Source: Alphaproteobacteria bacterium
GTDB taxonomy: Bacteria; Pseudomonadota; Alphaproteobacteria; Bin95
Assembly (NCBI GenBank): GCA_022826185.1
Contig: JAJDVH010000153.1
Span: forward strand, 5,070-69,069
Direction of reading: 5' to 3'
Length of the DNA: 64,000 nt
Both the position numbers and the translations under genes were made by a program. Below are positions 34,238 through 55,818 of the stretch, one piece after another. How positions within the stretch are numbered: the first letter of the stretch is position 1; the number at the start of each line of letters is the position of its first letter. The notes under the pieces are model-generated. The model had not been told where the DNA came from. It searched no databases and worked only from the letters and a program-made list of their open reading frames with translations.

Positions 34238-35883
34238 TGGATGGCGGAGAGGCGCTCGCGGAAACGCTTGCGGCATGGGGGGTGGAAGCGGCCTTCGCCG
34301 TACCGGGCGAAAGCTATCTTCCCGTCCTTGCCGGGCTCCAGCGCCGGGCGAACGCCATCCGCCTCGTTACGCCCCGCCATGAGTCAGGCGTCACCTTTGC
34401 CTGCGCGGCCTATGGCAGGATCGCCGGCAAGCCAGCCGTCGGTCTCGTCAGCCGCGGGCCGGGCTCGACCAATGCTTCCATCGGGCTCCATGTCGCGCAG
34501 CAGGACTCGGTGCCCATGCTCCTGGTCATCGGCGATGTGCCGACGCCGTCCAAGGGCCGCGAAGCCTTCCAGGAAATCGACTACCACAAGATGTTCTCCG
34601 GCATTGCGAAGGCAGTGCTCGAACCGCAAACCGCGGCGGATGTGCCGCAGAAGGCGGCCCGCGCGCTGGAACTGGCTGCCGCGGGGCGGCCGGGGCCGGT
34701 GGTGCTGGTCATGCCGAAGGACATTTCGGACGGCGATGCAGGCGCGCCGGAGGTGCCTCGGCCGGTTCCGCGCGCTCCTCTGCTGCCCGATGCCGAAGCC
34801 GTGGCGGCGGCGGCCCGGCTTGTCGATGCGGCCCGCCGCCCGATCGTCATTGCGGGCGAGCTGATCGCGTTCGAAGGCGCGGGGGCGGCCTTGTCCGATT
34901 TCGCTGCGGCCAGCGGCGCGGCCGTGACCGCCGCCTATCGCTGCCAGGACGCCATGGCGAATGACGATCCCGCCTATATCGGGCATCTGGAGATCAACCG
35001 GGACCACTTCCAGGAGCGGGGCTGGGCGGAGGCCGACCTCGTCATCGCCGCCGGGGCAAGGCTGGACGGCATCACGACCCGTGACTTCTCGATGATCCGG
35101 GAAGACCAGACGCTGATACACATCCACCCCGACGCCGAAGTCCTGGGCCGCTGGCCGTCCGGAGCAGCCATCCGGGCCGATGCGCGTCCCGCGCTGGAGG
35201 CATTGTCGGGCGCCGTTACGAACGGAAGCCATGAGCGCCACGAATGGCGGGCGGGGCTGAACAGTGCCTACCGGCAATTTTCGGAACCCGGTGGCGTTTC
35301 TGTTCATGGCCGCGTCGACCTCGCCGAAGTCACGGCCGAAACGCAAAGGCAGTTGCCTGCCGACGCGGTGGTCATAACCGACAGCGGCACCTTCGCGCGC
35401 TGGGTGCATCGCTATTACAGCTTCGGAGAGCCGCGCACGCAGGCGGGGCCGATGGCGGGCGCGATGGGTTACGGCGTCCCCGGCGGCATCGGCGCCGCGC
35501 TTGCGCGTCCCCGGTCCCCGGTGGTCGTGTTCGTGGGCGACGGCGGTTTCCTGATGACCGGGCAGGAAGCTGTGACACTGGTGCAGGAGCGGCTGCCGGT
35601 GAAGATCGTCGTTTGCGACAACAATGCCTGGGGCTCGATTCTCACCTCGCAGCAGACGCGGTACGGCGAAGCCGGAATTTTCGGCACGAGGCTGGAAAGC
35701 CCCGACTTCGAGGCGGTCGGCCGGGCCTACGGGCTCCATTCGAGCCGCGTGCGGGAAACGGGTGAATTCGCTGGCGCCTTTGCCGCTGCCCTCTCATATC
35801 CGGGCCCGGCGCTGATCCACCTGGAGCTGGACGAGCGCGACATTTCCCCCTTCACCGGCCAGTCGCAGTCCTACCGGGTCTGA
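34231..35883 (+). CDS. Thiamine-pyrophosphate-dependent enzyme (acetolactate synthase/benzoylformate decarboxylase superfamily)
   Basis: 550 aa with N-terminal PYR, central, and C-terminal PP domains (GDGGF…N motif region). Confidence 0.8.
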   Translation: MLMDGGEALAETLAAWGVEAAFAVPGESYLPVLAGLQRRANAIRLVTPRHESGVTFACAAYGRIAGKPAVGLVSRGPGSTNASIGLHVAQQDSVPMLLVIGDVPTPSKGREAFQEIDYHKMFSGIAKAVLEPQTAADVPQKAARALELAAAGRPGPVVLVMPKDISDGDAGAPEVPRPVPRAPLLPDAEAVAAAARLVDAARRPIVIAGELIAFEGAGAALSDFAAASGAAVTAAYRCQDAMANDDPAYIGHLEINRDHFQERGWAEADLVIAAGARLDGITTRDFSMIREDQTLIHIHPDAEVLGRWPSGAAIRADARPALEALSGAVTNGSHERHEWRAGLNSAYRQFSEPGGVSVHGRVDLAEVTAETQRQLPADAVVITDSGTFARWVHRYYSFGEPRTQAGPMAGAMGYGVPGGIGAALARPRSPVVVFVGDGGFLMTGQEAVTLVQERLPVKIVVCDNNAWGSILTSQQTRYGEAGIFGTRLESPDFEAVGRAYGLHSSRVRETGEFAGAFAAALSYPGPALIHLELDERDISPFTGQSQSYRV

Positions 35884-35986
35884 AGAAGGGCTTTCAGCCT
35901 CCGCCGGGGGAACGCTCGTTGAAGCCGCGCTCCCGCTGTTCTAGCGTGCAGCGGCGCAGGTTCGAGGCCCGAGGGGGGAAGCCGGC

Positions 35987-38107: not shown

Positions 38108-39282
38108 GCCGCAGCCCCGTCATTGTCGGCGTAGCCGATGCGCCGACCCATGAACGGGGCCGCGCGCTGCCCGGCGCGACGGTGCTTTCCATACAGCGCG
38201 ATGCAGCCCATGAGGCGCTCGCCCAGGCAGGACTGAGGATGCGCGATGTGGACGGTCTCGCTGTCGCCGGCATGTGGGGCATGCCGGGGCCGGGGGCCAT
38301 GCAGCCGGTCCTGCTGACGGAGTATCTGGGTCTCGAATGGCCGCGCTATCTCGACGGGACGAATATCGGCGGCGCGGCCTTCGTGCTGCATGCCGGCCGG
38401 GCGGCGGAAGCGATCCGCTCCGGCCAGGCGGAGACGGTGCTGATCGTTTACGGCTCGCTGCAGAAGAGCCAGACGGCGCGGGCGCTGGGCGGGCGCCCGG
38501 CGATGTTCTCGAACCAGTGGGACATTCCCGCAGGGCTGCCGCTGCCGGTCGGCGCCTATGCGATGGCGGCGCAGAGGCATGCCCATGTTTATGGCTCGAC
38601 CCGCGAGACCCTTGCCGAAATCGCCGTGGCGACCCGGGCCTGGGCGGCGCTCAACCCCGCCGCTGCGTTCCGCGAGCCGATGACGGTGGACGATGTGCTG
38701 GACGCGCGGATGATCGCCTCGCCGCTCGGGCGCTACGACTGCTGCCTCGTCACCGACGGCGGCGGGGCGGTGGTGATGACCACGGAGGAGCGTGCGCGCG
38801 ACCTGCGGACGCCGCCGGTCCATGTGCTGGGCCACGGCGCGTCGGCCTCGCACACGAGCATCGCGCACATGCCCGACATGGCGAAGCTCGAGGCCGCCGA
38901 GCATTCCTCGCGCCGGGCCTACGCCATGGCGGGACGGAGGCCGGCCGAGATCGACCTTGCGATGCTCTACGACAGCTTCACCATCACCGTGCTGATGACG
39001 CTGGAGGCGCTCGGGCTCTGCGGCTACGGCGAGGGCAAGGAGTTCGTCAGGGGCGGCCGGACCGGCCCCGGCGGCGCCTTTCCGGTCAACACCAATGGCG
39101 GCGGGCTCTCCTATTGCCATCCGGGCATGTACGGGCTGTTCACCATCATCGAGGCATGCCGCCAGCTCTGGGGCCTTGCGGGCGAGAGGCAGGCGGAAGG
39201 CGTGCGCACGGCGATCTGCCACGGCACGGGCGGCGTGCTCTCTTCGGGCGCGACGCTCATCCTGTCGACCGAAAACGGCTAG
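38104..39282 (+). CDS. Thiolase-family (SCP-x type) protein
   Basis: 392 aa. Paralogous in architecture to the 22858-24036 thiolase; overlaps the preceding stop. Confidence 0.8.
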   Translation: MSRSPVIVGVADAPTHERGRALPGATVLSIQRDAAHEALAQAGLRMRDVDGLAVAGMWGMPGPGAMQPVLLTEYLGLEWPRYLDGTNIGGAAFVLHAGRAAEAIRSGQAETVLIVYGSLQKSQTARALGGRPAMFSNQWDIPAGLPLPVGAYAMAAQRHAHVYGSTRETLAEIAVATRAWAALNPAAAFREPMTVDDVLDARMIASPLGRYDCCLVTDGGGAVVMTTEERARDLRTPPVHVLGHGASASHTSIAHMPDMAKLEAAEHSSRRAYAMAGRRPAEIDLAMLYDSFTITVLMTLEALGLCGYGEGKEFVRGGRTGPGGAFPVNTNGGGLSYCHPGMYGLFTIIEACRQLWGLAGERQAEGVRTAICHGTGGVLSSGATLILSTENG

Positions 39283-40649: not shown

Positions 40650-40718
40650 GGCGTTGTCTCGCACCGGAACGCATGTTAGCCCTTGCCGGCACCTGCACCC
40701 GGCCTCGGAGTTTTCCGA

Positions 40719-43700
40719 ATGACGGCCCGCTTCTTCGAGCGCCCGATTCTCAACTCGCCATACGAATATCCGTCGCGACATTGGGAGCTTGACGGGACCA
40801 CCCGCCAGCCGACCGACCGAATCCTCGAACGCCGTCGGGATGTCGATTTCATTACGCCCATTCCTGCGGCCAGAAAGCGGCGGAACACGCAGGAACAACT
40901 GATTCTTCACGAAACCGCGGAACGGATCGGGACGGAGAGCCAGCAATACAAGCTGGCCGAGATGATCGCCAGCATCCGCCGCCAGGTCGATATCTGGCGC
41001 GCGCTGCCGGAGGCGCAATGGCGGGTGACGCCGGAAACGGCCCGGCTGCTACGGCATTGGCGCAATCATAAATTCAACGATATCAGGCCGTTCTTCTGCC
41101 AAGTGGAGGCCGTGGAGACCGCGATCTGGCTGACGGAGGTGGCGCCGTCACAGGGAAGCGCCGGGCGAGCTTTTCTCGAAGAACTCGAAAGGGCAAACGA
41201 AGACGCGAATCCCGGCTTATCCCGGCTGGCGCTGAAACTCGCGACAGGTGCAGGCAAAACCACCGTTATGGCCATGCTCATCGCCTGGCAAACCGTCAAC
41301 GCGGTGCGCCGGCCCGGCAGCCGGCGTTTTACTCGGGGGTTCCTCGTCGTCACTCCCGGCATCACTATCAAGGACCGGCTGCGCGTGCTCCAGCCCAACG
41401 ACCCGGACAGCTACTACCGGGAGCGGGAACTGGTGCCTGCCGACATGCTCGGCGACCTCGGCAAGGCGAAGATCGTCATCACCAACTACCACGCCTTCAA
41501 GCCCAAGGAGACGATGGCGGTTTCAAGGGGCGGCCGTGCGCTCCTGCAGGGCAGGGGGCCGGATCTGCGCACGGTGGAAACCGAAGGTCGGATGGTCCAG
41601 CGCGTGGTCGAGGACCTTATGGGTCTGAGGAATATCCTCGTGCTCAATGACGAGGCGCATCACTGCTACAGGGAGAAACCCGCCGACGAAGACGACGAAG
41701 GCGTTCTCCGGGGAGAGGACCGCACCGAGGCCGAGAAGAACCGGGAAGCCGCCCGGCTCTGGATATCCGGGCTGGAGGCGGTTGACCGCAAGCTCGGCCT
41801 CGCCCGCGTGGTCGATCTTTCGGCCACACCGTTCTTCCTGCGCGGATCGGGCTATGCGGAAGGCACGCTTTTCCCCTGGACGGTGAGCGACTTCTCGCTG
41901 ATGGACGCCATCGAGTGCGGCATCGTCAAGCTGCCGCGTGTGCCGGTCGCCGACAACATTCCGGGCACCGAGATGCCGACCTTCCGTAACCTCTGGCAGC
42001 ATATCGGCAAGGACATGCCGCGAAAGGGCAGAAGCAAGGCGTCCGGGCTGGACCCGCTGCGACTTCCTACCACGCTGCAGACGGCGCTGGAGGCTCTTTA
42101 CGGCCACTACGAGGATACTTTCGGGCTATGGCAGGAACAGGGCATCGAGGTGCCGCCCTGCTTCATCGTGGTCTGCAACAACACGGCTACCTCAAAGCTG
42201 GTTTACGACTTTATTTCCGGGTTCCACCGTACAGGTCCTGACGGTTCTCAAGCGTTGGTACAGAGCCGCTTCCCGCTTTTCCGGAATTTCGACGAGTTGG
42301 GCGCTCCACTCGCCCGCCCGCATACCTTGCTGATCGACAGCACGCAGCTTGAGTCCGGGGAGGCACTGGACCGGAATTTCCGCGCTGCGGCAGCGGATGA
42401 GATCGAACGTTTCCGCCGGGAGATCGTTGAACGCACCGGTGACCGGCAGCAGGCCGAGAAGTTGTCCGATGCAGATTTGTTGCGCGAGGCGATGAACACG
42501 GTCGGCAAGGCGGGCCGGCTTGGCGGTGCGACCCGTTGCGTGGTGTCGGTTTCCATGTTGACGGAAGGCTGGGATGCCAACACTGTCACCCATGTGCTCG
42601 GCGTCCGCGCGTTCGGCACGCAGCTCCTCTGCGAGCAGGTCGTCGGCCGGGCCTTGCGCCGACAGTCATATGAGTTGAACGAAGACAAACTGTTCGACGT
42701 TGAATATGCCGACGTCCTCGGGATCCCCTTCGATTTCACCGCCGAACCTGTTGTGGCGCCGCCACAGCGGCCTCGCAAGACCGTCCAGGTCCGGGCCGTC
42801 CGCCCAGAACGCGACGGGTGCGAAATTCGCTTCCCGCGCGTAGCCGGCTATCGGATCGAACTGCCGGAGGAGCGGTTGGAAGCGGAATTCAATACGGATT
42901 CGACGCTGGAACTGACCCCCGATCTCGTCGGCCCTACGAGAACCCGAAACGAGGGTATTGTCGGTGAAGGCGTCGATCTGACGGTAGAGCGCTTGGAAGG
43001 CATGCGGTTGCGGACGATTCAGTTTCATCTCGCAAACCATCTGTTGAACACGAAGTATCGGGACTCCGGCGAGGAACCGAAATTGCACCTGTTCGGCCCG
43101 CTCAAACGGATTACGCGCGAATGGCTGGACGATCACCTCGTTTGCAGGGGCGGCACCAAGCCGGCGCAAGTGCTGTATCCCTCATTGAAGGAGGTAGCTT
43201 GCGAGCGGATCAAGCAGGCAATCGACCGGGGCAGCGCGCAGCGCAAGGCGAGAGAAGACTCAAGCGAACCTTCCATTACGGCCGTGCTCGACCCCTACAA
43301 CCCTTCCGGTTCCACGGCCCATGTCCGTTTCACCACGACGAAGCAGTCTCTCTGGACGACGAATCCCGACCGTTGCCATATCAACTATGCCGTCTATGAC
43401 AGCGGCTGGGAGGCGGAGTTCTGCCGTATCGCCGATGCCCATCCCCGCGTCCGTGCCTGGGTGAAGAACCACGGCCTCGGCCTGGAGGTGCCCTATCGGT
43501 CCGGTTCCGAGACCCGGACCTACATTCCGGACTTCATCGTCCTGGTCGATGACGGGCGCGGTGTGGATGACCCGCTTCACCTGGTCATCGAGATCAAGGG
43601 CTATCGCGGTGAGGACGCGAAGGACAAGAAAGGGACCATGGACACCTACTGGGTGCCCGGCGTGAACGCGCTCGGTGATTACGGTCGCTGGAAGTTTACG

Positions 43701-43886
43701 GAATTCACGGATGTGTATGACATGGAAGATGATTTTGCCCGCATCGTGGGGCCGGAATTCGACCGCATGGTCGGCCAATTCCGTTCGTCCACCGAAATCG
43801 AATCCAGCAGATGGCTGGCAGAGAGCGGAGGCAGCGCTCCGGACCTCGAATACATTCCCCGTCGTCGAAGTGAAGCGGCCGGATGA
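40719..43886 (+). CDS. Type III restriction enzyme Res subunit (SF2 helicase plus C-terminal PD-ExK endonuclease)
   Basis: Walker A LATGAGKTT, DEAH box VLNDEAHH, and a C-terminal PD…EIK motif (YIPDFIVLV…VIEIKG). Start at ATG 40719. Confidence 0.85.
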   Translation: MTARFFERPILNSPYEYPSRHWELDGTTRQPTDRILERRRDVDFITPIPAARKRRNTQEQLILHETAERIGTESQQYKLAEMIASIRRQVDIWRALPEAQWRVTPETARLLRHWRNHKFNDIRPFFCQVEAVETAIWLTEVAPSQGSAGRAFLEELERANEDANPGLSRLALKLATGAGKTTVMAMLIAWQTVNAVRRPGSRRFTRGFLVVTPGITIKDRLRVLQPNDPDSYYRERELVPADMLGDLGKAKIVITNYHAFKPKETMAVSRGGRALLQGRGPDLRTVETEGRMVQRVVEDLMGLRNILVLNDEAHHCYREKPADEDDEGVLRGEDRTEAEKNREAARLWISGLEAVDRKLGLARVVDLSATPFFLRGSGYAEGTLFPWTVSDFSLMDAIECGIVKLPRVPVADNIPGTEMPTFRNLWQHIGKDMPRKGRSKASGLDPLRLPTTLQTALEALYGHYEDTFGLWQEQGIEVPPCFIVVCNNTATSKLVYDFISGFHRTGPDGSQALVQSRFPLFRNFDELGAPLARPHTLLIDSTQLESGEALDRNFRAAAADEIERFRREIVERTGDRQQAEKLSDADLLREAMNTVGKAGRLGGATRCVVSVSMLTEGWDANTVTHVLGVRAFGTQLLCEQVVGRALRRQSYELNEDKLFDVEYADVLGIPFDFTAEPVVAPPQRPRKTVQVRAVRPERDGCEIRFPRVAGYRIELPEERLEAEFNTDSTLELTPDLVGPTRTRNEGIVGEGVDLTVERLEGMRLRTIQFHLANHLLNTKYRDSGEEPKLHLFGPLKRITREWLDDHLVCRGGTKPAQVLYPSLKEVACERIKQAIDRGSAQRKAREDSSEPSITAVLDPYNPSGSTAHVRFTTTKQSLWTTNPDRCHINYAVYDSGWEAEFCRIADAHPRVRAWVKNHGLGLEVPYRSGSETRTYIPDFIVLVDDGRGVDDPLHLVIEIKGYRGEDAKDKKGTMDTYWVPGVNALGDYGRWKFTEFTDVYDMEDDFARIVGPEFDRMVGQFRSSTEIESSRWLAESGGSAPDLEYIPRRRSEAAG

Positions 43887-44254
43887 TTCTGGTGGATACG
43901 GTGGTGTGGATCGATCATCTGCGCGGTACCGAGCCTCATCTTGAGGAGATGTTGGACGCCGGTAACGTGGTGATGCATGCCATGATTCTCGGTGAGCTTG
44001 CGTGCGGCAACATTCCGAAGCGAGCAGAATTTCTGCAACGAATGCAGGATCTGCCGAATATCCGCGAGTGCACTCATGTCGATGTCATGTCCATGATTGA
44101 AACGAACGGGCTTATGCGCAGGGGAATCGGCTTTGTGGACGCGCATCTTCTTTGTTCAGTTCTCGAGCACGCTGGCATGACGCTCTGGACACGGGACCGA
44201 AAATTGAAGCGGATGGCGGAGACCCTTGGAGTTTCCTATGTGGAAAATGCTTAA
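43883..44254 (+). CDS. Orphan PIN-domain ribonuclease (VapC-like) embedded between res and mod
   Basis: 123 aa (MILVDTVVWIDHL…GFVDAHL…TRD) with PIN acidic residues. ATGA overlap with the res stop, no cognate antitoxin ORF. GC about 52% against a background of about 67%. Confidence 0.7.
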   Translation: MILVDTVVWIDHLRGTEPHLEEMLDAGNVVMHAMILGELACGNIPKRAEFLQRMQDLPNIRECTHVDVMSMIETNGLMRRGIGFVDAHLLCSVLEHAGMTLWTRDRKLKRMAETLGVSYVENA

Positions 44255-44355
44255 CGAGGCTGTTGGGGGCGAAATGCGACGTCCGGACACGAAGACAGTG
44301 CGTGCGGGGAGTTCCCGCTCGATGGCCTCCCTGCGCTTTGCCGGAAACGGTTGAT

Positions 44356-47151
44356 ATGGCGCGCCGCAGCAGGAAGACGCCGAAATCCGTCGAGACCCTC
44401 ACCCACGGCGAGGCGTCCAGGCGGAACATTCCGACGGCGGAGTTCCATCCCGTCATGGCGGAGGAGGAGAAGGCGCCGCGCCCGGTGGTCTATGAGCGCA
44501 ACCGGGACCTCGATCCGCAGCTTGTCTGGCGCGGGAAGGAGGCGCAGGACGCGGCGGACCTCACCGTGCAGGCGCCGCCGCTCTACATCCAGGAGAAGGT
44601 GCATCCCAAGGCGCTGGTAGACGACCTGCTGCGGCAGACGAAGGCGCGCCGCGACGAGGAGGCGGAGGCGGCGCCGGACCTGTTCGCCGATTTCAACGGC
44701 CTGCCGGACGAGGACGCGCGCACGGAGTTCTACCGCCACGACGCCAACTGGTCGAACCGCATGATCCTGGGCGACAGCCTGCAGGTGATGGCGAGCCTTG
44801 CCGAGCGCGAGGGCCTGCGCGGCAGGGTGCAATGCATCTATATCGACCCGCCCTACGGCATCCGCTTCAACTCCAACTTCCAGTGGTCCACCACCAGCCG
44901 CGACGTGAAGGACGGCAATGCCGCCCACATCACCCGCGAGCCGGAGCAGGTGAAAGCCTTCCGCGACACCTGGCGCGACGGCATCCACTCCTATCTGACT
45001 TATCTCCGCGACCGGCTGACGGTGGCGCGGGAACTGTTGACGGAAAGCGGCTCGGTCTTCGTGCAGATCGGGGACGAGAACGTTCACCGGGTCCGGGCGT
45101 TGATGGATGAGGTGTTTGGGGACAAAAATTTCGTGTCAGTAATCACCTTAAAGAAGACAGCAGTTCAGACTGATTTAGCGCTACCCAGTGTTTCAGATTA
45201 CATCATATGGTTCTGTAAGGATATAAATTCAATAAAGTATCGACAAGTATACCTTTCGAAAGGTATAGGAGATCCGGGATCCGAACAATACAAATTAATT
45301 CGAATAGAGGGAGGTCATTTCAGACGGATAAAGGATCAATCTAGCTATACAATTCACGAGCTATGCCGACCAGATAACCTAACGTCTAGTCACGAATACA
45401 GTAGAGGTCGAGAAATTATCGAGTTTCGGGGGCGTCAATTTTCTCCAGGTAATCGCTATTGGTCAACGAGCCCGGAATCTATCCAACGTCTGGAGAAAGC
45501 AGATCGTCTACACGCGGGAACAGGGCGATCCTTGAGCCACGTTAGGTTCCTTAGCGACTTTTCGATTATGCCACTTTTGAATATCTGGACTGATACAGGC
45601 ACAGGCGGTTACGGAGACGAAAAATACTATGTGGTACAAACTACCTCAAAAATTATTCAACGCTGCGTTCTGATGACCACCGACCCCGGCGATCTCGTGC
45701 TGGACCCGACCTGCGGCTCTGGCACCACTGCATATTGCGCAGAGCAGTGGGGCCGGCGATGGATCACCATCGACACCTCCCGCGTGGCGCTCGCGCTGGC
45801 GCGGGCGCGGGTCATGGGCGCGCGCTATCCCTGGTATCTGCTGGCCGACAGCCCGGAGGGGCAGCGCAAGGAGGCCGAGATTATCCGCCGTGCTCCCTCG
45901 GAAACGCCGACTGGCGGCAATATCCGACAGGGCTTCGTCTATGAGCGCGTGCCGCATATCACGCTGCGCAGCATCGCCAACAATGCCGAGATCGACGTGA
46001 TCTGGGAGAAGTGGGAAGAGCGGCTGGCGGCGCTCCGTGGCCAGTTGTCAGTGACCGGTGGCCAGGAAGAAACTCTCGAAGAATGGGAAGTCCCGCGCGA
46101 GCGTCCCGACCACTGGCCACCGGCCACCGACTCCTTGCTCGCCGAATTCTGGGAGCTTCGCATAGCCCGGCAGAAGGAGATCGACGCCTCCATCGCCGCC
46201 AGGGCCGATACCGAATATCTCTACGACAAGCCCTATGAGGACCGGTCCCGCATCCGCGTCGCCGGCCCCTTCACGGTCGAGAGCCTGGCGCCGCACCGGA
46301 TGCTGGCCGTCGACGAAGACGACGAGCTGTTCTCCACCCTCGGCGAAAAGGGCCGCACCTATGGCGAAGCGCCCGACTTCGCGGAGATGATCCTGGAGAA
46401 CCTGAAAACCTCTGGCGTTCAGCAGGCGCATAGGGAGGATCGGATTGCCTTCTCCTCCCTCGCGCCCTGGCCGGGCGACGGCTATATCTGCGGCGAGGGC
46501 CGCTACGAGGAGGCGGACGGCAAGCCGCGCCGCGCCGGCATCTTCATCGGCCCGGAATTCGGCACCGTCTCGCGCCCCGACCTCTCCGCCGCTGCCCGCG
46601 AGGCGGCCGAAGCCGGCTTCGACGTGCTCATCGCCTGCGCCTTCAGCTACGACGCCCATGCCAGCGAGTTCGAGCGGCTGGGCCGCATCCCCGTCCTCAA
46701 GGCGCGCATGAACGCCGACCTGCACATGGCCGACGATCTGAAGAACACGGGCAAGGGCAATCTCTTCGTCATCTTCGGCGAGCCCGACATCGATATCCTG
46801 GACGAAGGCGGCGACGAAATCAGGGTCAGGATCAACGGCGTGGACGTGTTTCACCCGAATTCCGGCGAGGTGCGCAGCGACGGGCCGGACGGCATTGCCT
46901 GCTGGTTCGTGGACACGGACTACAACGAGGAGAGCTTCTTCGTCCGCCACGCTTATTTCCTGGGCGCCAACGACCCCTACAAGGCGCTCAGGACGACGCT
47001 CAGGGCAGAGATCGACGAGGACGCCTGGGCCACGCTCAACAGCGACACCTCGCGCCCGTTCCCGCGCCCGGCCTCCGGCCGCATCGCCGTCAAGGTCATC
47101 AACCATCTGGGCGACGAGGCGATGAAGGTGTTTCGAGTGGATAGTGGCTAG
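44356..47151 (+). CDS. Type III restriction-modification Mod subunit (beta-class N6-adenine/N4-cytosine DNA methyltransferase) with a long C-terminal extension
   Basis: Motif IV DPPY (IYIDPPYGIRF) precedes motif I (DPTCGSGTT), with a variable region between. 931 aa. Start at ATG 44356. Confidence 0.85.
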   Translation: MARRSRKTPKSVETLTHGEASRRNIPTAEFHPVMAEEEKAPRPVVYERNRDLDPQLVWRGKEAQDAADLTVQAPPLYIQEKVHPKALVDDLLRQTKARRDEEAEAAPDLFADFNGLPDEDARTEFYRHDANWSNRMILGDSLQVMASLAEREGLRGRVQCIYIDPPYGIRFNSNFQWSTTSRDVKDGNAAHITREPEQVKAFRDTWRDGIHSYLTYLRDRLTVARELLTESGSVFVQIGDENVHRVRALMDEVFGDKNFVSVITLKKTAVQTDLALPSVSDYIIWFCKDINSIKYRQVYLSKGIGDPGSEQYKLIRIEGGHFRRIKDQSSYTIHELCRPDNLTSSHEYSRGREIIEFRGRQFSPGNRYWSTSPESIQRLEKADRLHAGTGRSLSHVRFLSDFSIMPLLNIWTDTGTGGYGDEKYYVVQTTSKIIQRCVLMTTDPGDLVLDPTCGSGTTAYCAEQWGRRWITIDTSRVALALARARVMGARYPWYLLADSPEGQRKEAEIIRRAPSETPTGGNIRQGFVYERVPHITLRSIANNAEIDVIWEKWEERLAALRGQLSVTGGQEETLEEWEVPRERPDHWPPATDSLLAEFWELRIARQKEIDASIAARADTEYLYDKPYEDRSRIRVAGPFTVESLAPHRMLAVDEDDELFSTLGEKGRTYGEAPDFAEMILENLKTSGVQQAHREDRIAFSSLAPWPGDGYICGEGRYEEADGKPRRAGIFIGPEFGTVSRPDLSAAAREAAEAGFDVLIACAFSYDAHASEFERLGRIPVLKARMNADLHMADDLKNTGKGNLFVIFGEPDIDILDEGGDEIRVRINGVDVFHPNSGEVRSDGPDGIACWFVDTDYNEESFFVRHAYFLGANDPYKALRTTLRAEIDEDAWATLNSDTSRPFPRPASGRIAVKVINHLGDEAMKVFRVDSG

Positions 47152-47605: not shown

Positions 47606-48787
47606 ATGGACCTCAATTTCGCCCCTGAAGACGAAGCCTTTCGCGACGAGTGCCGTTCCTTCCTGGCCGAGACGCTGCCGGGCGATGTGGCGCGCAAGGT
47701 CGGGCTCGGCATCCAGCCGACGCTGGCCGAGACGATGGCGTGGCACAGGGCGCTTTACGACAAGGGCTGGGTCGCGCCGAATTGGCCGACCGAATGGGGC
47801 GGGCCCGGCTGGACCGTGACGCAGAAATACATCTGGGACGAGGAGCAGGCGCTCGCCAATGCGCCGCGCCCGATCCCCTTCGGCCTTTCCATGTGCGGGC
47901 CGGTGCTGATGGCCTTCGGCACCGAGGAGCAGAAGCGGGACAACCTGCCGCGCATCCTCTCCGGCGAGCGCATCTACTGCCAGGGCTATTCCGAGCCCGG
48001 CGCCGGCTCCGACCTCGCCGCGCTCAAGACCCGCTGCGAGGTGCATGACGACCGCCTCGTCATCAACGGCCAGAAGATCTGGACGACGGCGGCCCACTGG
48101 GCGAACTGGATTTTCTGCCTCGTGCGGACATCCTCGGAAGGCAAGCGGCAGGAGGGCATCTCCTTCATCCTGATCGACATGGCCACGCCCGGCATCGAGG
48201 TGAAGCCGCTCATCACCATCGACGGCCTGCACGAGGTCAACGAGGTGTTCTTCACCGATGTCGTCGTGCCGCGCGAGAACCTCGTGGGCGAGGTGGACCA
48301 GGGCTGGACGATCGCCAAATACCTGCTGGGCCATGAGCGCATGGGCGGCGGGGCGCTGGGTAGCCAGAAGAATGGCCTGCGCTCGCTCAAGGAGATTGCG
48401 GCGGACCAGGGGCTGGAGGAGGACGCGACCTTCATGCGCAAGGTGGCGGAGGTCGAGATCGAGCTCCAGACGCTGGAAATGCAGATGCTCCGCATGCTCG
48501 CCGCCGTCTCGGCGGACAAGGAGATCGGCGCCGAGTCGTCGATGATCAAGATACGCCGGACGGAGATCCAGCAGCGCCTCTCCGAGCTCAAGATGGAGGC
48601 GGCGGGCTACGACGCGGGTCCCTACCAGATCGAGGCCATGGAGCATGGCTGGAACGAGGAGCCGGTCGGCCCCGACTACGCCAACGCGCTCGCGGCGAAA
48701 TATTTCAACGACCGCAAGCACACGATCTTCGCCGGCTCCAACGAGATCCAGCGCAACATCATCTCGAAGCGGGTGCTGGGCCTTTGA
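47606..48787 (+). CDS. Acyl-CoA dehydrogenase family protein
   Basis: 393 aa with ACAD N, middle, and C domains (…YSEPGAGSDLAAL…). Start is immediately after repeat copy 2. Confidence 0.85.
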   Translation: MDLNFAPEDEAFRDECRSFLAETLPGDVARKVGLGIQPTLAETMAWHRALYDKGWVAPNWPTEWGGPGWTVTQKYIWDEEQALANAPRPIPFGLSMCGPVLMAFGTEEQKRDNLPRILSGERIYCQGYSEPGAGSDLAALKTRCEVHDDRLVINGQKIWTTAAHWANWIFCLVRTSSEGKRQEGISFILIDMATPGIEVKPLITIDGLHEVNEVFFTDVVVPRENLVGEVDQGWTIAKYLLGHERMGGGALGSQKNGLRSLKEIAADQGLEEDATFMRKVAEVEIELQTLEMQMLRMLAAVSADKEIGAESSMIKIRRTEIQQRLSELKMEAAGYDAGPYQIEAMEHGWNEEPVGPDYANALAAKYFNDRKHTIFAGSNEIQRNIISKRVLGL

Positions 48788-48920
48788 GGCGGCCTCGTCC
48801 CGCAAGCCTGCCGGACTTGTTCCACTGCCGTCCGGTTGGCGTCCTCCTCGCCGCCCCGGCCCCGAGCCCTGTCGGCTTCACACATCTGTGGCGTCGGCAT
48901 AGCGTCGCACCGCCCATAAC

Positions 48921-49047
48921 CGTCACCCCGGACTTGATCCGGGGTCCAACTCCGGTTCTCGCGGCGGCCCCGGCGGTTGGACATGCTCTCCACCGGTGGC
49001 AGGCGCAGGCGGTCAGGGATGGACCCCGGATCAAGTCCGGGGTGACG
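48921..49047. repeat. REP-like element: two inverted 27-nt hairpin units cgtcaccccggacttgatccggggtcc … ggaccccggatcaagtccggggtgacg
   Basis: Perfect 27-nt inverted repeat separated by about 73 nt. Each arm is itself a CCCCGG/CCGGGG hairpin. Intergenic between the ACAD and E1-alpha genes. Confidence 0.8.
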
Positions 49048-49083
49048 GAAGGGGGTGTCCGGGCATGACAGGAGACGGCTGAC

Positions 49084-50088
49084 ATGAGCGGCTCCCGGCC
49101 CAATCTTGACCTCGAACGGCTGGCGGACCGGCATCGGCGGATGCACCGCATCCGCGCCTTCGAGGAGCAGGCCGTCGCTGCGCTGCAGGAAGGGCTGGTG
49201 TTGGGCGCCATACACCCCTCCATCGGGCAGGAGGCCTGTGCGGTGGGCGCGGTCGGGAGCCTCGCGCGCGAGGACCTGCTGCTCTCGACTCATCGCGGCC
49301 ACGGCCACACGCTGGAGAAGGGCGCCTCCGCGGTTGCGATGATGCGCGAGCTGTTCGGGCGCGAAGGCGGCAATTGCGGCGGCAAGGGCGGCTCCATGCA
49401 CATCGCCGACTTCTCGGTCGGGATGCTGGGCGCGAACGGGGTCGTCGGCGCCAACATCAACATCGCCGCAGGTGCTGCCCACGCGGTGCGGCTCAAGGGC
49501 GAGCGGCGCATCGTCTGTTGCATCTTCGGCGACTGCGCGGTCAATCGCGGACCTTTCCTGGAGGGGCTGAACTGGGCGCGGGTCTTCGACCTGCCGGTGC
49601 TGTTCGTCTGCGAGGACAACGCCTTCGCCGCCACCACCCGGACCGAGGCGATGACCGGCGGCCCCGGCCCGGCGGCGCGCGCCGAGGCGCTGGGGATTCC
49701 GGCCCGGGCCGTGGACGGCAACGATGTGGACCTCGTGGCGGAGGTGACGACGGAGCTGCGCGGGCGGATCCTCGACGGCGGCGGCCCGCAATTCCTCTGG
49801 GCGAAGACCTGGCGGCTGACGGGCCACACGGCCGTGGACAAGGCCGCCTACCGCGATGCCGGGGAGGTCGAGGAGCGCTGGAAGGACGACCCGATCGCCC
49901 GCGCCGCGGAGACCTTGCGGGCGCATGGCGTCGCCGATGAGACGCTTGCCGGCCACCGGGAAGCCGCCGTCGGGGAGATGCAGGCTGCCTTCGAGGAGGC
50001 GAAGGCCGCGCCCTGGCCGGAAGACGGTGCGCTCTACGCCGACGTGCAGGATATCGGCGACCCGCGCGAGGCGGCGTTCCGATGGTGA
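49084..50088 (+). CDS. TPP-dependent 2-oxoacid dehydrogenase E1 component, alpha subunit (pyruvate/acetoin dehydrogenase-like)
   Basis: 334 aa with a TPP-binding motif (GDCAVNRG…N). Confidence 0.85.
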   Translation: MSGSRPNLDLERLADRHRRMHRIRAFEEQAVAALQEGLVLGAIHPSIGQEACAVGAVGSLAREDLLLSTHRGHGHTLEKGASAVAMMRELFGREGGNCGGKGGSMHIADFSVGMLGANGVVGANINIAAGAAHAVRLKGERRIVCCIFGDCAVNRGPFLEGLNWARVFDLPVLFVCEDNAFAATTRTEAMTGGPGPAARAEALGIPARAVDGNDVDLVAEVTTELRGRILDGGGPQFLWAKTWRLTGHTAVDKAAYRDAGEVEERWKDDPIARAAETLRAHGVADETLAGHREAAVGEMQAAFEEAKAAPWPEDGALYADVQDIGDPREAAFRW

Positions 50089-51050
50089 AGACGAGCTACA
50101 TGGAAGCCGGCAAGCGGGCGCTGGCCGAGGAGATGCGCCGCGACCCGACGGTGTGGGCGGTCGGCGAGGACCTCGGGCGCGGCGGCGTGTTCGGGCAGTA
50201 TGCCGGCATGGTCGAGGAATTCGGCCCGCTCCGGATTTCGGACGCGCCGATTTCAGAGGCGGCGATCCTCGGCTCCGCCGTCGGCGCGGCGCTGGCGGGG
50301 ACGCGCCCGGTGGTGGAGATGCGCTTCGCCGACTTCGCGCTCTGCGCCGTGGACGAGCTGGTGAACCAGGCGGCCAAGGCCCGCTACATGTTCGGCGGGC
50401 AGGGCGGCGTGCCGCTTGTGGTGCGCGAGCCGATGGGCATGTGGCGGTCCTCCGCCGCGCAGCACTCGCAGTCGCTGGAAGCCTGGTATGTGCATATTCC
50501 GGGCCTGACGGTGGTCGCCCCGGCGACGCCGGGGGACAATCTGCGCCTGCTGAAGGCGGCGATCCGCAGCGACGATCCGGTGGTCTATATGGAGCACAAG
50601 GACCTGTGGGGGATCGAGGAGGAGCTCGGCGAGGACGAGCCGCCGGGCGCGCTCGGCAGCGCGCGGATCGTCCGGGAAGGCGATGACGCCACGGTGGTCT
50701 CATGGTCTGCCATGGTTCGCAATGCCGCCGCTGCGGCCGAGCAGCTGGCCGAGGAAGGCGTGTCGGTGGAGGTGATCGACCTGCGCACGCTCTGGCCCTG
50801 GGACCGCGGCGCGGTGCTGGAGTCCGTGCGCAGGACCGGACGGCTGGTCGTGGCGCAGGAGGCGGTCTCGGTGGGCGGTTTCGGAGCCGAGGTCGCTGCG
50901 ACCGTCTCGGAGGCGCATTTCGGCAACCTGAAAGCGCCCGTGAAGCGCCTCGGCGCGCCGCGCATCCCGATTCCCTATGCAAAGCCGCTCGAAGACATGC
51001 TGCGCGTGGGCCCGGACGCGATTGCGGACGCGGTTCGCGCGCAGTTGTGA
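50082..51050 (+). CDS. 2-oxoacid dehydrogenase E1 component, beta subunit (transketolase-like)
   Basis: 322 aa. Overlaps the alpha-subunit stop. Confidence 0.85.
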   Translation: MVKTSYMEAGKRALAEEMRRDPTVWAVGEDLGRGGVFGQYAGMVEEFGPLRISDAPISEAAILGSAVGAALAGTRPVVEMRFADFALCAVDELVNQAAKARYMFGGQGGVPLVVREPMGMWRSSAAQHSQSLEAWYVHIPGLTVVAPATPGDNLRLLKAAIRSDDPVVYMEHKDLWGIEEELGEDEPPGALGSARIVREGDDATVVSWSAMVRNAAAAAEQLAEEGVSVEVIDLRTLWPWDRGAVLESVRRTGRLVVAQEAVSVGGFGAEVAATVSEAHFGNLKAPVKRLGAPRIPIPYAKPLEDMLRVGPDAIADAVRAQL

Positions 51051-51076
51051 GCTTTTTTCCAAGAGGACTTGAAGCG

Positions 51077-51583
51077 ATGACCGATTGGCAGGAGGACCTT
51101 TACCGGGTCCTCAAGGAGTTCGAGGTCAGCCAGGTGAGCTATGTGCCGGATGCCGGCCACCGGGTGCTGATCGACATGTCGCTAGCCGACCCGGAGGTGC
51201 ATTCCGTGCCGCTGACGACGGAGGAAGAGGGCATCGCCATGCTGGCCGGCGCCCATCTGGGCGGCGCGCGCGGCGTCGCGGCCATGCAGTCCTCGGGCAT
51301 CGGCAATTGCGTCAACATGTTCTCGCTGGTGAAGAACGGCCTGTTCCCGATGCTGGTGCTGGTGTCGATGCGCGGCGACTTCGGCGAGGGCAATCCCTGG
51401 CAGATGCCGATGGGGCAGGCGGTCGAGCCGGTGATGGAGGCGATGGGCTTCATCACCGTGCGGATCGACCGGCCCGAGGATGTCGAGGGCGCAATGCGGG
51501 CGGCCTGCACCATGGTGTTCAAGTCGGGGCAGGCGGTGGGCGTGCTTCTCACCCAGAAATTGATCGGTGCAAAAGCATTTTAA
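51077..51583 (+). CDS. Sulfopyruvate/phosphonopyruvate decarboxylase-like alpha subunit (ComD-like TPP-enzyme N-terminal half)
   Basis: 168 aa, start at ATG 51077. Pyr-binding domain of split TPP decarboxylases. Confidence 0.6.
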   Translation: MTDWQEDLYRVLKEFEVSQVSYVPDAGHRVLIDMSLADPEVHSVPLTTEEEGIAMLAGAHLGGARGVAAMQSSGIGNCVNMFSLVKNGLFPMLVLVSMRGDFGEGNPWQMPMGQAVEPVMEAMGFITVRIDRPEDVEGAMRAACTMVFKSGQAVGVLLTQKLIGAKAF

Positions 51584-51601
51584 GCGAGGGAAATTGAAGC
51601 G

Positions 51602-52228
51602 ATGAATGAAGCATTCAGGGCCGGGACCGCGGCCGATATGAGCCCCGTCGGCACGCTCGACAGGCGCGAGGCCGTGCCCGCGCTGGTGGGCAATCCGCAG
51701 GACTGGCTGATCGTCGCGGGCCTTGCCGGCACGGCGAAGGACACGGCCGCCATGTGCGAGCCGGAGGCCAACTATTTCGCCTGCGCGGGCGTCATGGGCG
51801 GGGCTGTCGCCATGGGGCTCGGACTGGCGCTCGCGCGGCCTGACCGCAGCGTGCTGGTGCTGACGGGCGACGGCGAGCTGCTGATGAATGTGGGCTCGCT
51901 TGCGACCGTCGCGATCCTGAACCCGCCCAACCTCTCCATCGTCTGCGTCGATAACGGCCATTACGGCGAGACGGGCTACCAGAAGAGCCACACCTCGCTG
52001 GGCGTGGATCTTGCCGCAATGGCGTCCGGGGCCGGCATCACGGCGGTCCGCTCGGTATCCGAAACGCACGAGATCGAAGAGGCCGGACGGTTGCTGCGCG
52101 AAGCCAACGGCGCGTCGTTCGTGCTGCTGAAGATTACCCCGGACGCGCCGCCGCCCGTCATCAGGCGCTCCCTGGATGCGGCCTTCGCCAAGGACCGCTT
52201 CCGCACCGCAACGCTCCCGGCAGGGTAA
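51602..52228 (+). CDS. Sulfopyruvate/phosphonopyruvate decarboxylase-like beta subunit (ComE-like TPP-binding half)
   Basis: 208 aa with a GDGxxxMN…N TPP-binding motif (LTGDGELLMNVGSL…VDNG). Confidence 0.6.
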   Translation: MNEAFRAGTAADMSPVGTLDRREAVPALVGNPQDWLIVAGLAGTAKDTAAMCEPEANYFACAGVMGGAVAMGLGLALARPDRSVLVLTGDGELLMNVGSLATVAILNPPNLSIVCVDNGHYGETGYQKSHTSLGVDLAAMASGAGITAVRSVSETHEIEEAGRLLREANGASFVLLKITPDAPPPVIRRSLDAAFAKDRFRTATLPAG

Positions 52229-52465: not shown

Positions 52466-54535
52466 TCAGGGATCGTTCGACCGGTCCGGTTGCCGGGCTC
52501 CGGTGCTTCCGGTGATCCTGGGCCGGAACGGGTAGGGCGTTTTCCGGGTCCCGATGCCGGGAAGCGGGCGCACCGGCGCGCCTTCATGCGCCGCCGCCAT
52601 GAAATCGTGCCAGATGCGCGCCGGCAGCCCGCCGCCCGTGACCTCGTCCATCGGCGCGCCGTCATCGTTGCCGACCCAAACGCCGGCCACGAGGTTCCCC
52701 GTGAAGCCCACGAAAAAGGCGTCGCGGAAGGACTGGCTGGTGCCCGTCTTGCCGGCGGCGGGGCGGTCGGAGAGCCGGGCCGCCTTGCCGGTTCCCTGCT
52801 TCACGACGGCGGTCAGCAGGTCGTTCATGGATGCCACCACGCCGGGAGCCACGGCTTCCCCCGCGCCGGTGCCCGCCCGCTGGAACACGCCCGCAATCTC
52901 CCGGACGCCGTAGGGGATGACGCCGCGCCCGCCATTGGCGAAGGCGGCGTAGGCCCCCGTCAGTTCGATCAGCCTCACCCCGCTGGAGCCGAGCGCGATG
53001 GTGAGGTCGGGCGCCAGGTCCGAGGTGATGCCGAGACGGCGGGCTGCGTCTGCGACGCGGGCGCGTCCGGCCCGGTCGGCGAGACGGACGGCGGCGGCGT
53101 TCAGGGACCGGGCGAAGGCCTCCCGCATGGTGACGGAGCCCCGGAAGCGACCGTCGAAGTTCTTCGGCGCCCAGCCGCCCACATTGACGCGCGCATCGGT
53201 CACGATGTCGTCCGGCTCCAGGCCGCGCTCCAGGGCCGCTAGGTAAACGAACAGCTTGAAGGCGGACCCCGGCTGGCGAAGCGCCTGCGTCGCGCGGTTG
53301 AACTGGCTTTCGCCGTAATCCCTGCCGCCCACCATCGCCCGCACCGCGCCGTCCGGGGCCATCGCGACCAGCGCGGCCTGCGACGGGTTCGTCTTGCCTG
53401 CCAGCGCGGCGGCGACCGTCTCGGCTGCGAGCCACTGCAGGCCGGGGTCGAAGGTCGTGGCGATGCGCAGGTCCCGGTCCACCAGGCCCATGCGCCGGTG
53501 GACCTGCGCCAGCACCCAGTCGGCGAAATAGCCGCGCCCGTCCGGCGCCGTCCTGGTCCGCAAGGCGGAGCCTGCCGCCGCCTGCGCCTGCTCGGCCGAG
53601 ATGAAGCCGGACTCCGCCATCGCCTTCAGCACAAGCCGGGCCCGCTCGCCGGCGCCTCCGGGATTGGCGACAGGCGACAACCGGCTCGGCGCCTTCAGCA
53701 GGCCGGCCAACACGGCGGCTTCCCAGAGGTCGACTTCGGCCGCCGGCTTGGAGAAGAAGCGCCGTGCAGCGGCATCGATGCCATAGGCCCCGGAGCCGAA
53801 ATAGGCGCGGTTCAGGTAGAGCGAAATGATGTGGTTCTTGTCGTAGCGCCACTCCAGCCAGAAGGCGAGAAGGGCCTCGCGGATTTTCCTCTCGATGGAC
53901 CGTTCGGGCGTGAGGAAGACATTTTTCGCAAGTTGCTGGGTGATCGTGCTGCCGCCCTGGCGCACGCCGCCCTCGACGATGTTGACCCAGAGCGCCCGCG
54001 CCAGGCCGATCGGGTCGATGCCGCCATGCTCCAAGAAGCGCCGGTCCTCGATGGCTATGACGGCGCGCGGCACATAGGCAGGCAGCCGCGCCGCATCCAC
54101 CGGGTCGCCGTAAAGGTCGCCCTTTGCAAGCACCGGATTGCCGTCCACATCGTTGAGGAAGATGCCCGGCCGCCGCCCGCTTTCCGCGACGCGGTCGACA
54201 TCGGGCAATGTGTAGGAAAAATAGGCCAGCGCCACGATGAGGGCGACCAGCCCCCACACGCAGACGACCGCAATTCCGGAAACGAGGCGCCGCAGCACGG
54301 ACCGGCGCGCGGCGGACCCTCCACCGGCTCTTCGTCTCCTGCCACGGGTCGGGCGCGGCGGCTTCCGCTTGGACGCCGCTTTGCCGGCAGCCCGGCCCGT
54401 AAGCGCCCGGCCCGGCGAAATCGGCGTTTTGGCTGCCGACTTTGTCTCTTCGTCGGTTCCCTTGCGCAGCCGCGGACCGCCTCGGCGGCGCTGCCGCCCG
54501 GTTCCCTTGCCTGTCCTGTCGCCCTGGCGCGCCAT
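52466..54535 (-). CDS. Penicillin-binding protein 1A family (bifunctional glycosyltransferase/transpeptidase) with an Arg/Lys-rich cytoplasmic N-terminal tail
   Basis: GT51 motifs (EDRRFLEHGGID, GGSTITQQL) and transpeptidase motifs (SAFK, SLN, KTGT). Start placed at ATG 54535; the upstream part of the ORF-track ORF is rejected. Confidence 0.8.
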   Translation of the reverse strand: MARQGDRTGKGTGRQRRRGGPRLRKGTDEETKSAAKTPISPGRALTGRAAGKAASKRKPPRPTRGRRRRAGGGSAARRSVLRRLVSGIAVVCVWGLVALIVALAYFSYTLPDVDRVAESGRRPGIFLNDVDGNPVLAKGDLYGDPVDAARLPAYVPRAVIAIEDRRFLEHGGIDPIGLARALWVNIVEGGVRQGGSTITQQLAKNVFLTPERSIERKIREALLAFWLEWRYDKNHIISLYLNRAYFGSGAYGIDAAARRFFSKPAAEVDLWEAAVLAGLLKAPSRLSPVANPGGAGERARLVLKAMAESGFISAEQAQAAAGSALRTRTAPDGRGYFADWVLAQVHRRMGLVDRDLRIATTFDPGLQWLAAETVAAALAGKTNPSQAALVAMAPDGAVRAMVGGRDYGESQFNRATQALRQPGSAFKLFVYLAALERGLEPDDIVTDARVNVGGWAPKNFDGRFRGSVTMREAFARSLNAAAVRLADRAGRARVADAARRLGITSDLAPDLTIALGSSGVRLIELTGAYAAFANGGRGVIPYGVREIAGVFQRAGTGAGEAVAPGVVASMNDLLTAVVKQGTGKAARLSDRPAAGKTGTSQSFRDAFFVGFTGNLVAGVWVGNDDGAPMDEVTGGGLPARIWHDFMAAAHEGAPVRPLPGIGTRKTPYPFRPRITGSTGARQPDRSNDP

Positions 54536-54567
54536 CGCGCCATATAGGCTGAAGGCCGGGCGTAATT

Positions 54568-55818
54568 CTAGGTTCTTGCGCGGTGGGCCTGGCTTCGCGG
54601 CAGGATCAGCAGGTTGCCGATGAGCTGCATGCCCTTGTCGTCTTCGGCGGCCGCGCGTTCGCGCAGCGCAAGCAGCGCCCTGCCGGCGGCCGTCTCGCCC
54701 CAGAACCAGTCGGAGAGGTCCTGTGAGGCCGCCCCTCCGGGCTGCGCCGTGGCGGCTTCCGTGTAGAAGGCCATCAGGTCGTCGCAGGCCAGTTTCAGGG
54801 AACGCGATAGCTTCCGCTCGGGACCCGGATCCTTCGGCTCCCCGCCGTCGGCGTAGCGGCTGACGATCCGCGCGGCGTCCTCGATATCGTAGCCGCTGGC
54901 GCCGACGGTCGTGCGTCCGCGCCGGTCCTTCGCCGCGTCCCACCAGGGCCGCAGCCGGGCGATTTCGTCCGCGACCAGGCGCTCGAGGCTGCCGGCCGAG
55001 GCCGCGTCCGGTCGCGGAAGGGACACGGGACAGGCCCAGCCGTCGTAATCCGCCGGCTCCGGCGCGGGGTCGGGAAACTCCTCCAGCACGGGGCCGGCAG
55101 GCCGGTCCAGCAGGTCGAGGGCGGCCCGCAGCACACGGAGCTGGAATGCCGGGTCGTCGGGCGCGCCGAGCGGCCTGCCGAGCTCGAACGGCACCGACAG
55201 CGTGCGCGGATTGGCGATCGCCTCGGCGTGTTCGTGAACCAGGGCAATGACCACCGTGGCAATGCCCTTGCGCTCCAGATAGTGGGCGAGCGCGCACACG
55301 GCGCGCGTGCAGTTCGGTCAGACGGGGACCAGCAGCGCCGTATCGACGCCTTCGGCCTGCATGGCCGCCGCGACATCCTCCGCGAAGGGCTGCATCGGCG
55401 CGGGGTCGCTCGCGCCCATGAAGGAATAATGGTGGGCCGCAACGCCGCCGATCTCGCCGCTGGCGGCCATCTCGTTCAGGCGCTCGACCGGATAGACGAT
55501 GTTGAGGTCCTGCTGGAAGCCGGTCCGGTCGTAATTGACCGAGATATGACTCATCACGATGTCGTTGGCGTCGGCATCGGCCGGCAGCACCCGGTAATCG
55601 ACGGCTCCCGGGCCGAACGGGTGGTCTCCCCGCCTGCCGAGCCCGGCGGAGGAAACGACCGCAACCCGGCGTTCGGACAAGGGCGGCCCGAGCACGAATG
55701 CGCCGCCCTCCATTTCGGGAAGCGGCAGGCGGGCGAGATGCCGGGCCACGCTCTCCGGCATGTCGGCGTAACGGGTCATGGACGCTCCTTGCGGAATCTG
55801 CGGCGATGCGCGAAACAA
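54568..55818 (-). CDS. Glycine/betaine/sarcosine/D-proline reductase selenoprotein-B-family protein with an in-frame TGA (candidate selenocysteine, U-P-N-C motif)
   Basis: ORFs 55318-55818 and 54568-55299 are in the same frame, separated only by TGA at 55318-55320 plus 7 codons. Read-through gives …ALLVPV-U-PNCTRAVCALAHYLERKG…, one continuous ~416-aa protein of this family. Confidence 0.6.
55290..55306 (-). promoter_or_regulatory. Candidate bacterial SECIS-like hairpin: GCGCGC-CGUGU-GCGCGC, starting 11 nt 3' of the in-frame UGA
   Basis: mRNA reads UGA CCGAACUGCAC GCGCGC CGUGU GCGCGC UCGCC. Six-bp GC stem with a GU-containing loop. Confidence 0.35.

Follow-up and report, generated by a model that had tools for sequence, protein, structure and literature searches.

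Selenoproteins labeled "proline reductase PrdB" are well known from marine sequence surveys: 42 sequences were catalogued in the Sargasso Sea survey (Zhang, Fomenko and Gladyshev 2005, PMC1088965), and the Global Ocean Sampling survey counted 235 selenocysteine (Sec) and 110 Cys forms of the family (Zhang and Gladyshev 2008, PMC2398784). Characterized by PF07355 and a UxxC motif (U, Sec), "PrdB" ranks among the most abundant marine selenoproteins (PMC1088965, PMC2398784), a statement repeated in recent reviews, and both surveys file the marine family under PrdB without splitting it from the clostridial enzyme. Here we analyzed a gene of this kind in a 64,000-nucleotide stretch of an alphaproteobacterial genome (assembly GCA_022826185.1, contig JAJDVH010000153.1, positions 5,070 to 69,069; hereafter, the window). 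The original prediction, made from the DNA sequence, had proposed a candidate selenoprotein encoded by a gene split by an in-frame TGA. That proposal is supported by alignment to Cys homologues, by conservation of the TGA in 80 of 80 related loci, by covariation of a hairpin downstream of the TGA, and by linkage of sel genes to the gene in relatives. The locus is very probably one intact gene (55779..54568, minus strand), whose product is a selenoprotein of 403 residues in the GrdB/PrdB superfamily, with UGA codon 154 read as Sec.

Mechanical calling of open reading frames (ORFs) returned two minus-strand ORFs, 55818..55318 and 55299..54568. As originally claimed, these lie in a common frame (519 nt apart, or 173 codons) and are parted by a single TGA (55320-55318). 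This TGA is the sole interruption of a frame of 403 codons (54568..55779, closing with a TAG stop at 54570-54568), and no further stop or frameshift was detected. The length first proposed for the read-through protein, ∼416 amino acids, was revised. The true start is most likely the ATG at 55779, as judged from the sequence, rather than the TTG at 55818; a Shine-Dalgarno-like AAGGAG (55785..55790, minus strand, read from the sequence) lies 5 nt upstream of this ATG. With this start, the predicted protein is 403 amino acids long and carries Sec at residue 154. Gene callers also used ATG 55779 on identical contigs, where they reported a 153-amino-acid N-terminal fragment. Translation through the TGA gives VPV-U-PNC-TRAVCALAHY, in agreement with the UxxC motif described at the outset. 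The U-P-N-C motif (TGA CCG AAC TGC, 55309..55320, minus strand) constitutes a predicted selenol/thiol redox pair.

To follow the TGA across relatives, we scanned species-representative genomes by best-segment tblastn, which yielded 80 loci at 46 to 88% identity. The TGA was kept at the position of codon 154 in every one of them, and thus in several phyla. These loci span metagenome-assembled genomes of Alphaproteobacteria, Reyranella (including the cultured strain Reyranella soli NBRC 108950, L053, which carries the Sec form), Desulfobacterales, Desulfarculia, Beta- and Gammaproteobacteria, and Dehalococcoidia. In 11 of 11 full-length homologues (405 to 427 amino acids, aligned end to end), the residue at the TGA column was Cys; no residue other than Cys or Sec was found there. 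The motif P-V-[C/U]-P-x-C is invariant in this alignment, with P155 and C157 unchanged throughout, and TGT or TGC occupies the TGA codon in 18 further Cys-form DNA sequences. Compared with the five closest relatives (L001 to L005), the ratio of nonsynonymous to synonymous substitution rates (dN/dS) was 0.10 to 0.19 for the N-terminal half and 0.14 to 0.22 for the C-terminal half. Both halves of the gene are therefore under purifying selection, and the values past the TGA indicate that the downstream half is translated and selected. Moreover, four assemblies from different samples share an identical downstream ORF of 243 residues, together with the same upstream fragment of 153 residues and the same neighbors, so the TGA is not a sequencing error.

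We also considered a reassigned genetic code and rejected it, since 30 of 48 crude gene calls in the window end in TGA, the commonest ordinary stop there. Four further in-frame TGAs in the window (12365 on the plus strand, and 3679, 3704, and 49292) have coding-like third-position GC on both sides; these look like ordinary gene ends before a same-frame neighbor, or like antisense frames. Separately, the family is present as two tandem paralogues, both of which contain a TGA, in loci L007 (10460 and 11689), L008, L010, L011, L020, L043, and L045.

The hairpin placed by the original prediction 11 nt past the TGA is present as claimed: its 5′ arm GCGCGC (55306-55301), loop CGUGU (55300-55296), and 3′ arm GCGCGC (55295-55290) make up a predicted bacterial selenocysteine insertion sequence (bSECIS) at 55290..55306 on the minus strand. 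The claim that its spacing is that of bacterial SECIS elements was likewise upheld. When compared with the bSECIS criteria given in the Fig. 2 legend of PMC13188914, the hairpin has the appropriate 6-bp stem, 5-nt loop, G then U at loop positions 2 and 3, and 17 nt from UGA to loop, with a folding energy of −11.8 kcal/mol. We then compared codon use between 125 distinct TGA-forms and 18 Cys-forms. Stem codons of the TGA-forms hardly vary (Thr ACG, 108/125; Arg CGC, 113/125; Ala GCC, 112/121; Gly GGC, 87/93; Ala GCG, 85/88), with a third-position entropy of 0.2 to 0.8 bit. In contrast, the loop Val codon GTN (1.35 bit) and the flanking codons (1.4 to 1.9 bit) use all synonyms. This freezing of the stem codons holds also for TGA-forms in ∼49% GC contexts. 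In the Cys-forms, however, codon use at the stem positions is free (1.6 to 1.8 bit) and only 1 to 5 of the 7 pairs are formed; mean local folding energy is −3.0 kcal/mol, versus −12.7 kcal/mol in the TGA-forms.

Covariation was assessed on 137 distinct TGA-form sequences over the 7-bp stem of the family consensus hairpin (GCGCGCC-GUG-GGCGCGC), using 500 shuffles and register-shifted controls. The stem was paired in 90.2% of cells, compared with 27 to 64% in the register-shifted controls. Compensatory double changes were found in five of the seven pairs, amounting to 30 cells versus 5.3 in the shuffles; at pair 19-33, for example, C-G is replaced by U-A, G-C, or A-U. Some of these compensations alter the encoded amino acids of both arms together. 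For pairing, number of double changes, and covariation score alike, the observed value was reached by none of the 500 shuffles. An earlier count on 79 sequences had been weak, with one compensated pair, and the signal became convincing only when divergent and metagenomic TGA-forms were added. Taken together, these comparisons demonstrate that the hairpin is conserved, covarying, and specific to TGA-forms. Among the tandem paralogues, the second copies of L007 and L010 have a hairpin with a 9-bp stem placed 3 nt further downstream, with the GUG loop unchanged.

The Sec machinery itself adjoins the gene in several relatives. A tRNA-Sec lies within ∼5 kb of the gene in six of them (L009, L012, L016, L019, L021, and L164), making up 6 of the 19 tRNAs found across all fetched loci. 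In L164 (2423-7209), the order is selA (TIGR00474, 572 bits), selB (TIGR00475, 415 bits), tRNA-Sec, and the TGA-containing gene, with 48 nt between the end of the tRNA and the start of the gene. Physical linkage of selA, selB, and tRNA-Sec to the gene is seen in some relatives and suggests that the PrdB-like protein is a main client of the Sec machinery in genomes with adjoining sel genes. The window, by comparison, shows no sign of this machinery, a point in favor of the alternative that survives best: that the UGA is read through without Sec, either by a near-cognate or suppressor tRNA inserting Cys or Trp or by tRNA-Sec delivering Cys at low selenium, with the hairpin merely stimulating the event. 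We consider this improbable given the sel-gene linkage just described, the hairpin spacing and G-U loop, which fit a SelB-type bSECIS model, and the use of TGA as an ordinary stop by most window genes; in addition, the superfamily is a classic Sec family with Sec at the same position.

Less probable again is the proposal that the TGA is a real stop between two genes, a 153-amino-acid protein and a 243-amino-acid protein initiated separately at GTG 55299, which together would form a two-subunit enzyme. Conservation of both halves would also be expected from such an arrangement, and the GTG does lie 18 nt past the TGA in the window. However, this proposed start is the loop Val codon, which is GTC, GTT, or GTA, none of them a start codon, in 43 of 121 family members. 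The P-N-C-T-R-A stretch between TGA and GTG would go untranslated, yet conservation of its Cys, Thr, and Arg is 100%, and neither Cys157 nor Arg159 varies in the fused Cys homologues, where the polypeptide is continuous. The same stretch is taken up by the GC hairpin and contains no ribosome-binding site. As for the pseudogene that the original prediction had named as its alternative, a Cys-type homologue inactivated by nonsense mutation, a lone stop at a Cys codon is indeed one mutation from TGC or TGT and annotation pipelines do handle the locus as two fragments, but the TGA shared by all 80 loci, the purifying selection on both halves (including the part downstream of the TGA), the absence of a second stop or frameshift across 403 codons, the restriction of the hairpin to TGA-forms, and the same split in independent assemblies exclude it for all practical purposes.

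Several results nevertheless weigh against reading the locus as a Sec-decoded reductase gene. With respect to decoding, ARAGORN detected no tRNA in the 64-kb window, and motif scans detected nothing there resembling selA, selB, or selD. The window hairpin does fold, at −11.8 kcal/mol, but its stability does not exceed that of shuffled sequence (z = 0.39 and 0.26); because the DNA is 66% GC, the fold of a single sequence is uninformative, and significance comes only from comparison with relatives. In the window clade, the closing C-G pair is a C·U mismatch: replacement of a Gly codon (GGC) by a Cys codon (TGC) removes the seventh pair and leaves a stem of 6 bp. No Rfam family matched the hairpin, either at permissive E-values on 55200-55400 or at gathering score over the whole window. 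With respect to chemistry, the selenoprotein has no conserved operon partner in the source genome. Searching PDB sequences with the family profile gave no solved relative, and a Foldseek search of a homologue model (described below) against the PDB returned nothing significant (best E = 0.011; template modeling score, 0.23). The chemistry proposed for the protein rests on analogy with PrdB. Weighing these points with the comparative evidence, we regard the decoding step (UGA with SECIS, SelB, and Sec-tRNA) as well supported. The source genome presumably carries selABCD and would decode Sec, and we infer that Sec is actually inserted at residue 154.

We next asked to which family the protein belongs. 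The PrdB model TIGR04483 matched residues 32 to 224 (model positions 25 to 218 of 238; E = 3.9e-28), defining a PrdB/GrdB-like core domain at residues ∼32 to 224 (55108..55686, minus strand) with the Sec codon inside. The score of 98.5 bits did not reach the equivalog cut-off of 300. The Pfam model GRDB (PF07355) passed its gathering score (26.6 versus 22 bits) with residues 79 to 151 aligned to profile positions 272 to 345 of 347, so that the model stops just before the Sec codon; on the same model, Cys homologue P0035 scores 45.1 bits. The protein-B subfamily model TIGR01918 was missed (45.7 versus 65.45 bits), as were the other protein-B models, TIGR01917 (40.3 versus 602), NF040794 (54 versus 775), and NF040795 (52 versus 800). 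GrdB/GrdF/GrdH models were matched only in their C-terminal part, at positions ∼267 to 419. The window TGA falls near GrdB-type model position 348-350, which we take to be the Sec site of GrdB. The original description of both halves as GrdB/PrdB-like therefore held for the two flanks of the TGA (residues ∼32 to 224) but not for the last ∼180 residues, since the 243-amino-acid C-terminal half has no Pfam family. There, a family-specific C-terminal extension (residues ∼240 to 403; 54571..55062, minus strand) carries, in the homologue alignment, an invariant Cys250 (TGT 55032-55030) and an RRGRTTVG motif; from residue ∼268 onward it is predicted to consist of helices only. The assignment to the GrdB/PrdB family was correct at the level of the superfamily and not at that of the orthologue: judging by these profile scores, the protein belongs to the superfamily but is neither a true PrdB nor a true GrdB, because it falls below the curated cut-offs, has no prdA or grd neighbors, and bears an extra C-terminal helical domain. 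It represents a PrdB-like orphan subfamily. It should not be named a proline or glycine reductase.

The helical nature of this domain comes from an AlphaFold model of Cys homologue P0035, which is 43 to 44% identical to the window protein (mean predicted local distance difference test score, 84.8; predicted template modeling score, 0.85). The model has an alpha/beta core followed by an all-helical C-terminal domain (helices at 268-403). Cys157, the equivalent of Sec, sits in the turn that joins strand 150-154 to helix 158-173, and Cys160 lies in the first helical turn, a placement that, in the model, has classic redox-pair geometry. In the mechanism we consider most likely, UGA codon 154 would be decoded as selenocysteine, with the hairpin at 55306-55290 acting as a bacterial SECIS that would recruit SelB with Sec-tRNA(Sec). 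By analogy with PrdB, Sec154 and Cys157 at the strand-to-helix junction would then form a selenol/thiol pair cycling through a selenenyl-sulfide, and the protein might function as a stand-alone reductase of a small substrate, probably anionic given the many invariant Arg, Asp, and Glu residues. Activity as a D-proline or glycine reductase is not expected, since there is no nearby pyruvoyl partner (PrdA/GrdE) or GrdA and the protein has the extra helical domain.

The genomic neighborhood was examined in the window and across related loci. Neighbors in the window include a divergent zinc-type alcohol dehydrogenase, an enoyl-coenzyme A (CoA) hydratase, an alpha/beta hydrolase, PBP1A, thiamine pyrophosphate (TPP) enzymes, and an acyl-CoA dehydrogenase; in the ∼20 kb around the gene there are no prd, grd, thioredoxin, or sel genes. 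Clustering of the neighborhoods of 160 loci gave no PrdA-, GrdA-, or GrdE-like partner, and one large "cluster" was discarded as antisense ORF noise. Across 124 loci, the sole recurrent neighbor is a TauD/TfdA Fe(II)/2-oxoglutarate dioxygenase (PF02668; E = 7.8e-56), which is adjacent in 27 and on the same strand in 25 of these (e.g., L128, 7233-8084, and L086 to L093). This gene adjoins both Sec and Cys forms. In most Sec-form loci it follows the PrdB-like gene; in the Cys-form loci it lies upstream, often with a VTT/DedA membrane protein encoded between the two. The VTT/DedA protein lies upstream of some marine Cys-forms. The window contains no TauD homologue and no second copy of the family.

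Downstream of the selenoprotein stop, a PBP1A gene (Transgly and Transpeptidase domains, 689 amino acids; 54535..52466, minus strand) begins after only 32 nt, and the two may therefore be cotranscribed. PBP1A is the real gene in this region; the 943-amino-acid mechanical ORF at 52466-55297 on the minus strand, which overlaps the selenoprotein gene, is a high-GC artifact. On the plus strand, most genes at 34231-39282 and 47606-52228 belong to the metabolism of acyl-CoA and 2-oxoacids. They encode a TPP enzyme, an acyl-CoA synthetase of the ATP-grasp/CoA-ligase type, a thiolase-like protein, an acyl-CoA dehydrogenase, and E1 alpha/beta dehydrogenase components, and no obvious redox partner of the selenoprotein is among them. 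Between these two regions, at 40683-47151 on the plus strand, lies a type III-like restriction-modification pair, comprising a ResIII helicase (1,067 amino acids, 40683-43886) and an N6_N4 DNA methylase (999 amino acids, 44152-47151). The third-position GC of this pair is 0.75 to 0.76, below the 0.83 to 0.92 of most nearby genes, and the pair may thus be a horizontally acquired island.

In public protein catalogues, the Sec form is rarely represented whole: the window gene and almost all of its nearest relatives are entered as two "hypothetical" fragments. Among cluster representatives that match the C-terminal half, ∼147 of the best 150 are fragments of ∼190 to 280 residues, whose starts fall within the first ∼60 residues of the C-terminal ORF of the window, in most cases within its first few residues; only P0195 (411 amino acids) and P0206 (368 amino acids) are clearly longer. 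Metagenomic gene prediction therefore truncates the Sec form systematically, and once the TGA is read as Sec, the two fragments become one enzyme of 403 residues. The current understanding of Sec decoding is unchanged by these results; what is of mild interest beyond it is the real function of the family and its separation from genuine PrdB. As a tentative proposal, held with somewhat less than even confidence, the marine or environmental "PrdB" proteins, catalogued for 20 years, would not be proline reductase subunits but a distinct family of stand-alone selenoenzymes, built from a PrdB-like core and a private helical C-terminal domain and having no pyruvoyl partner. In this proposal, the family would be the principal client of the adjacent selA-selB-tRNA-Sec in several lineages and, in marine clades, a partner of a neighboring TauD/TfdA-type dioxygenase, possibly acting on an osmolyte or sulfonate. 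Reyranella soli NBRC 108950 and the loci with adjoining Sec machinery or a TauD-type dioxygenase offer starting points for determining function.

How, then, does the window gene compare with known systems? With PrdB (TIGR04483; Clostridium sticklandii, Kabisch et al. 1999, as cited in PMC13188914), it shares a homologous core of ∼195 residues, in which Sec forms part of a UxxC motif. PrdB, however, is a single-domain protein of ∼240 amino acids, whereas the window protein has 403 and an additional C-terminal helical domain. Unlike PrdB, the window gene is not accompanied within 20 kb by prdA (the pyruvoyl proprotein), prdC, or any other prd gene, and none recur in the 124 related loci; the hosts of the window-type family are largely aerobic Proteobacteria and not Stickland fermenters. 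With respect to GrdB, GrdF, and GrdH, the window core corresponds to their C-terminal part (model positions ∼267 to 417 of 431 to 435), and the N-terminal ∼260 residues of GrdB are missing. The motif also differs, being UxxCxxxxC in the window protein and UxxCxxC in GrdB, and no grdA, grdE, grdC, or thioredoxin system is found near the window gene.

At the RNA level, the hairpin resembles the consensus bSECIS model (bSECISearch) in its location in the coding region directly 3′ of the UGA, its GC stem of 6 to 7 bp, its apical loop of 3 to 5 nt with G then U, and its distance of 17 to 18 nt from UGA to loop. Relative to the SECIS of Escherichia coli fdhF, it is short and simple, with no lower stem or bulged U visible. 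To the marine "PrdB" family (PMC1088965, PMC2398784), the window gene is likened by shared traits rather than by sequence alignment: PF07355, the UxxC motif, and coexisting Sec and Cys forms. The survey family is abundant in aerobic marine proteobacterial metagenomes, and the Cys-form relatives recovered here come from marine metagenomes, some of them labeled "D-proline reductase (dithiol) PrdB" by the Joint Genome Institute (JGI). The window gene, in contrast, is from an alphaproteobacterial lineage of 66% GC, and the only deposited entries for members of this lineage are "hypothetical protein" fragments. It is best seen as a further, misannotated member of the already catalogued marine "PrdB" family.

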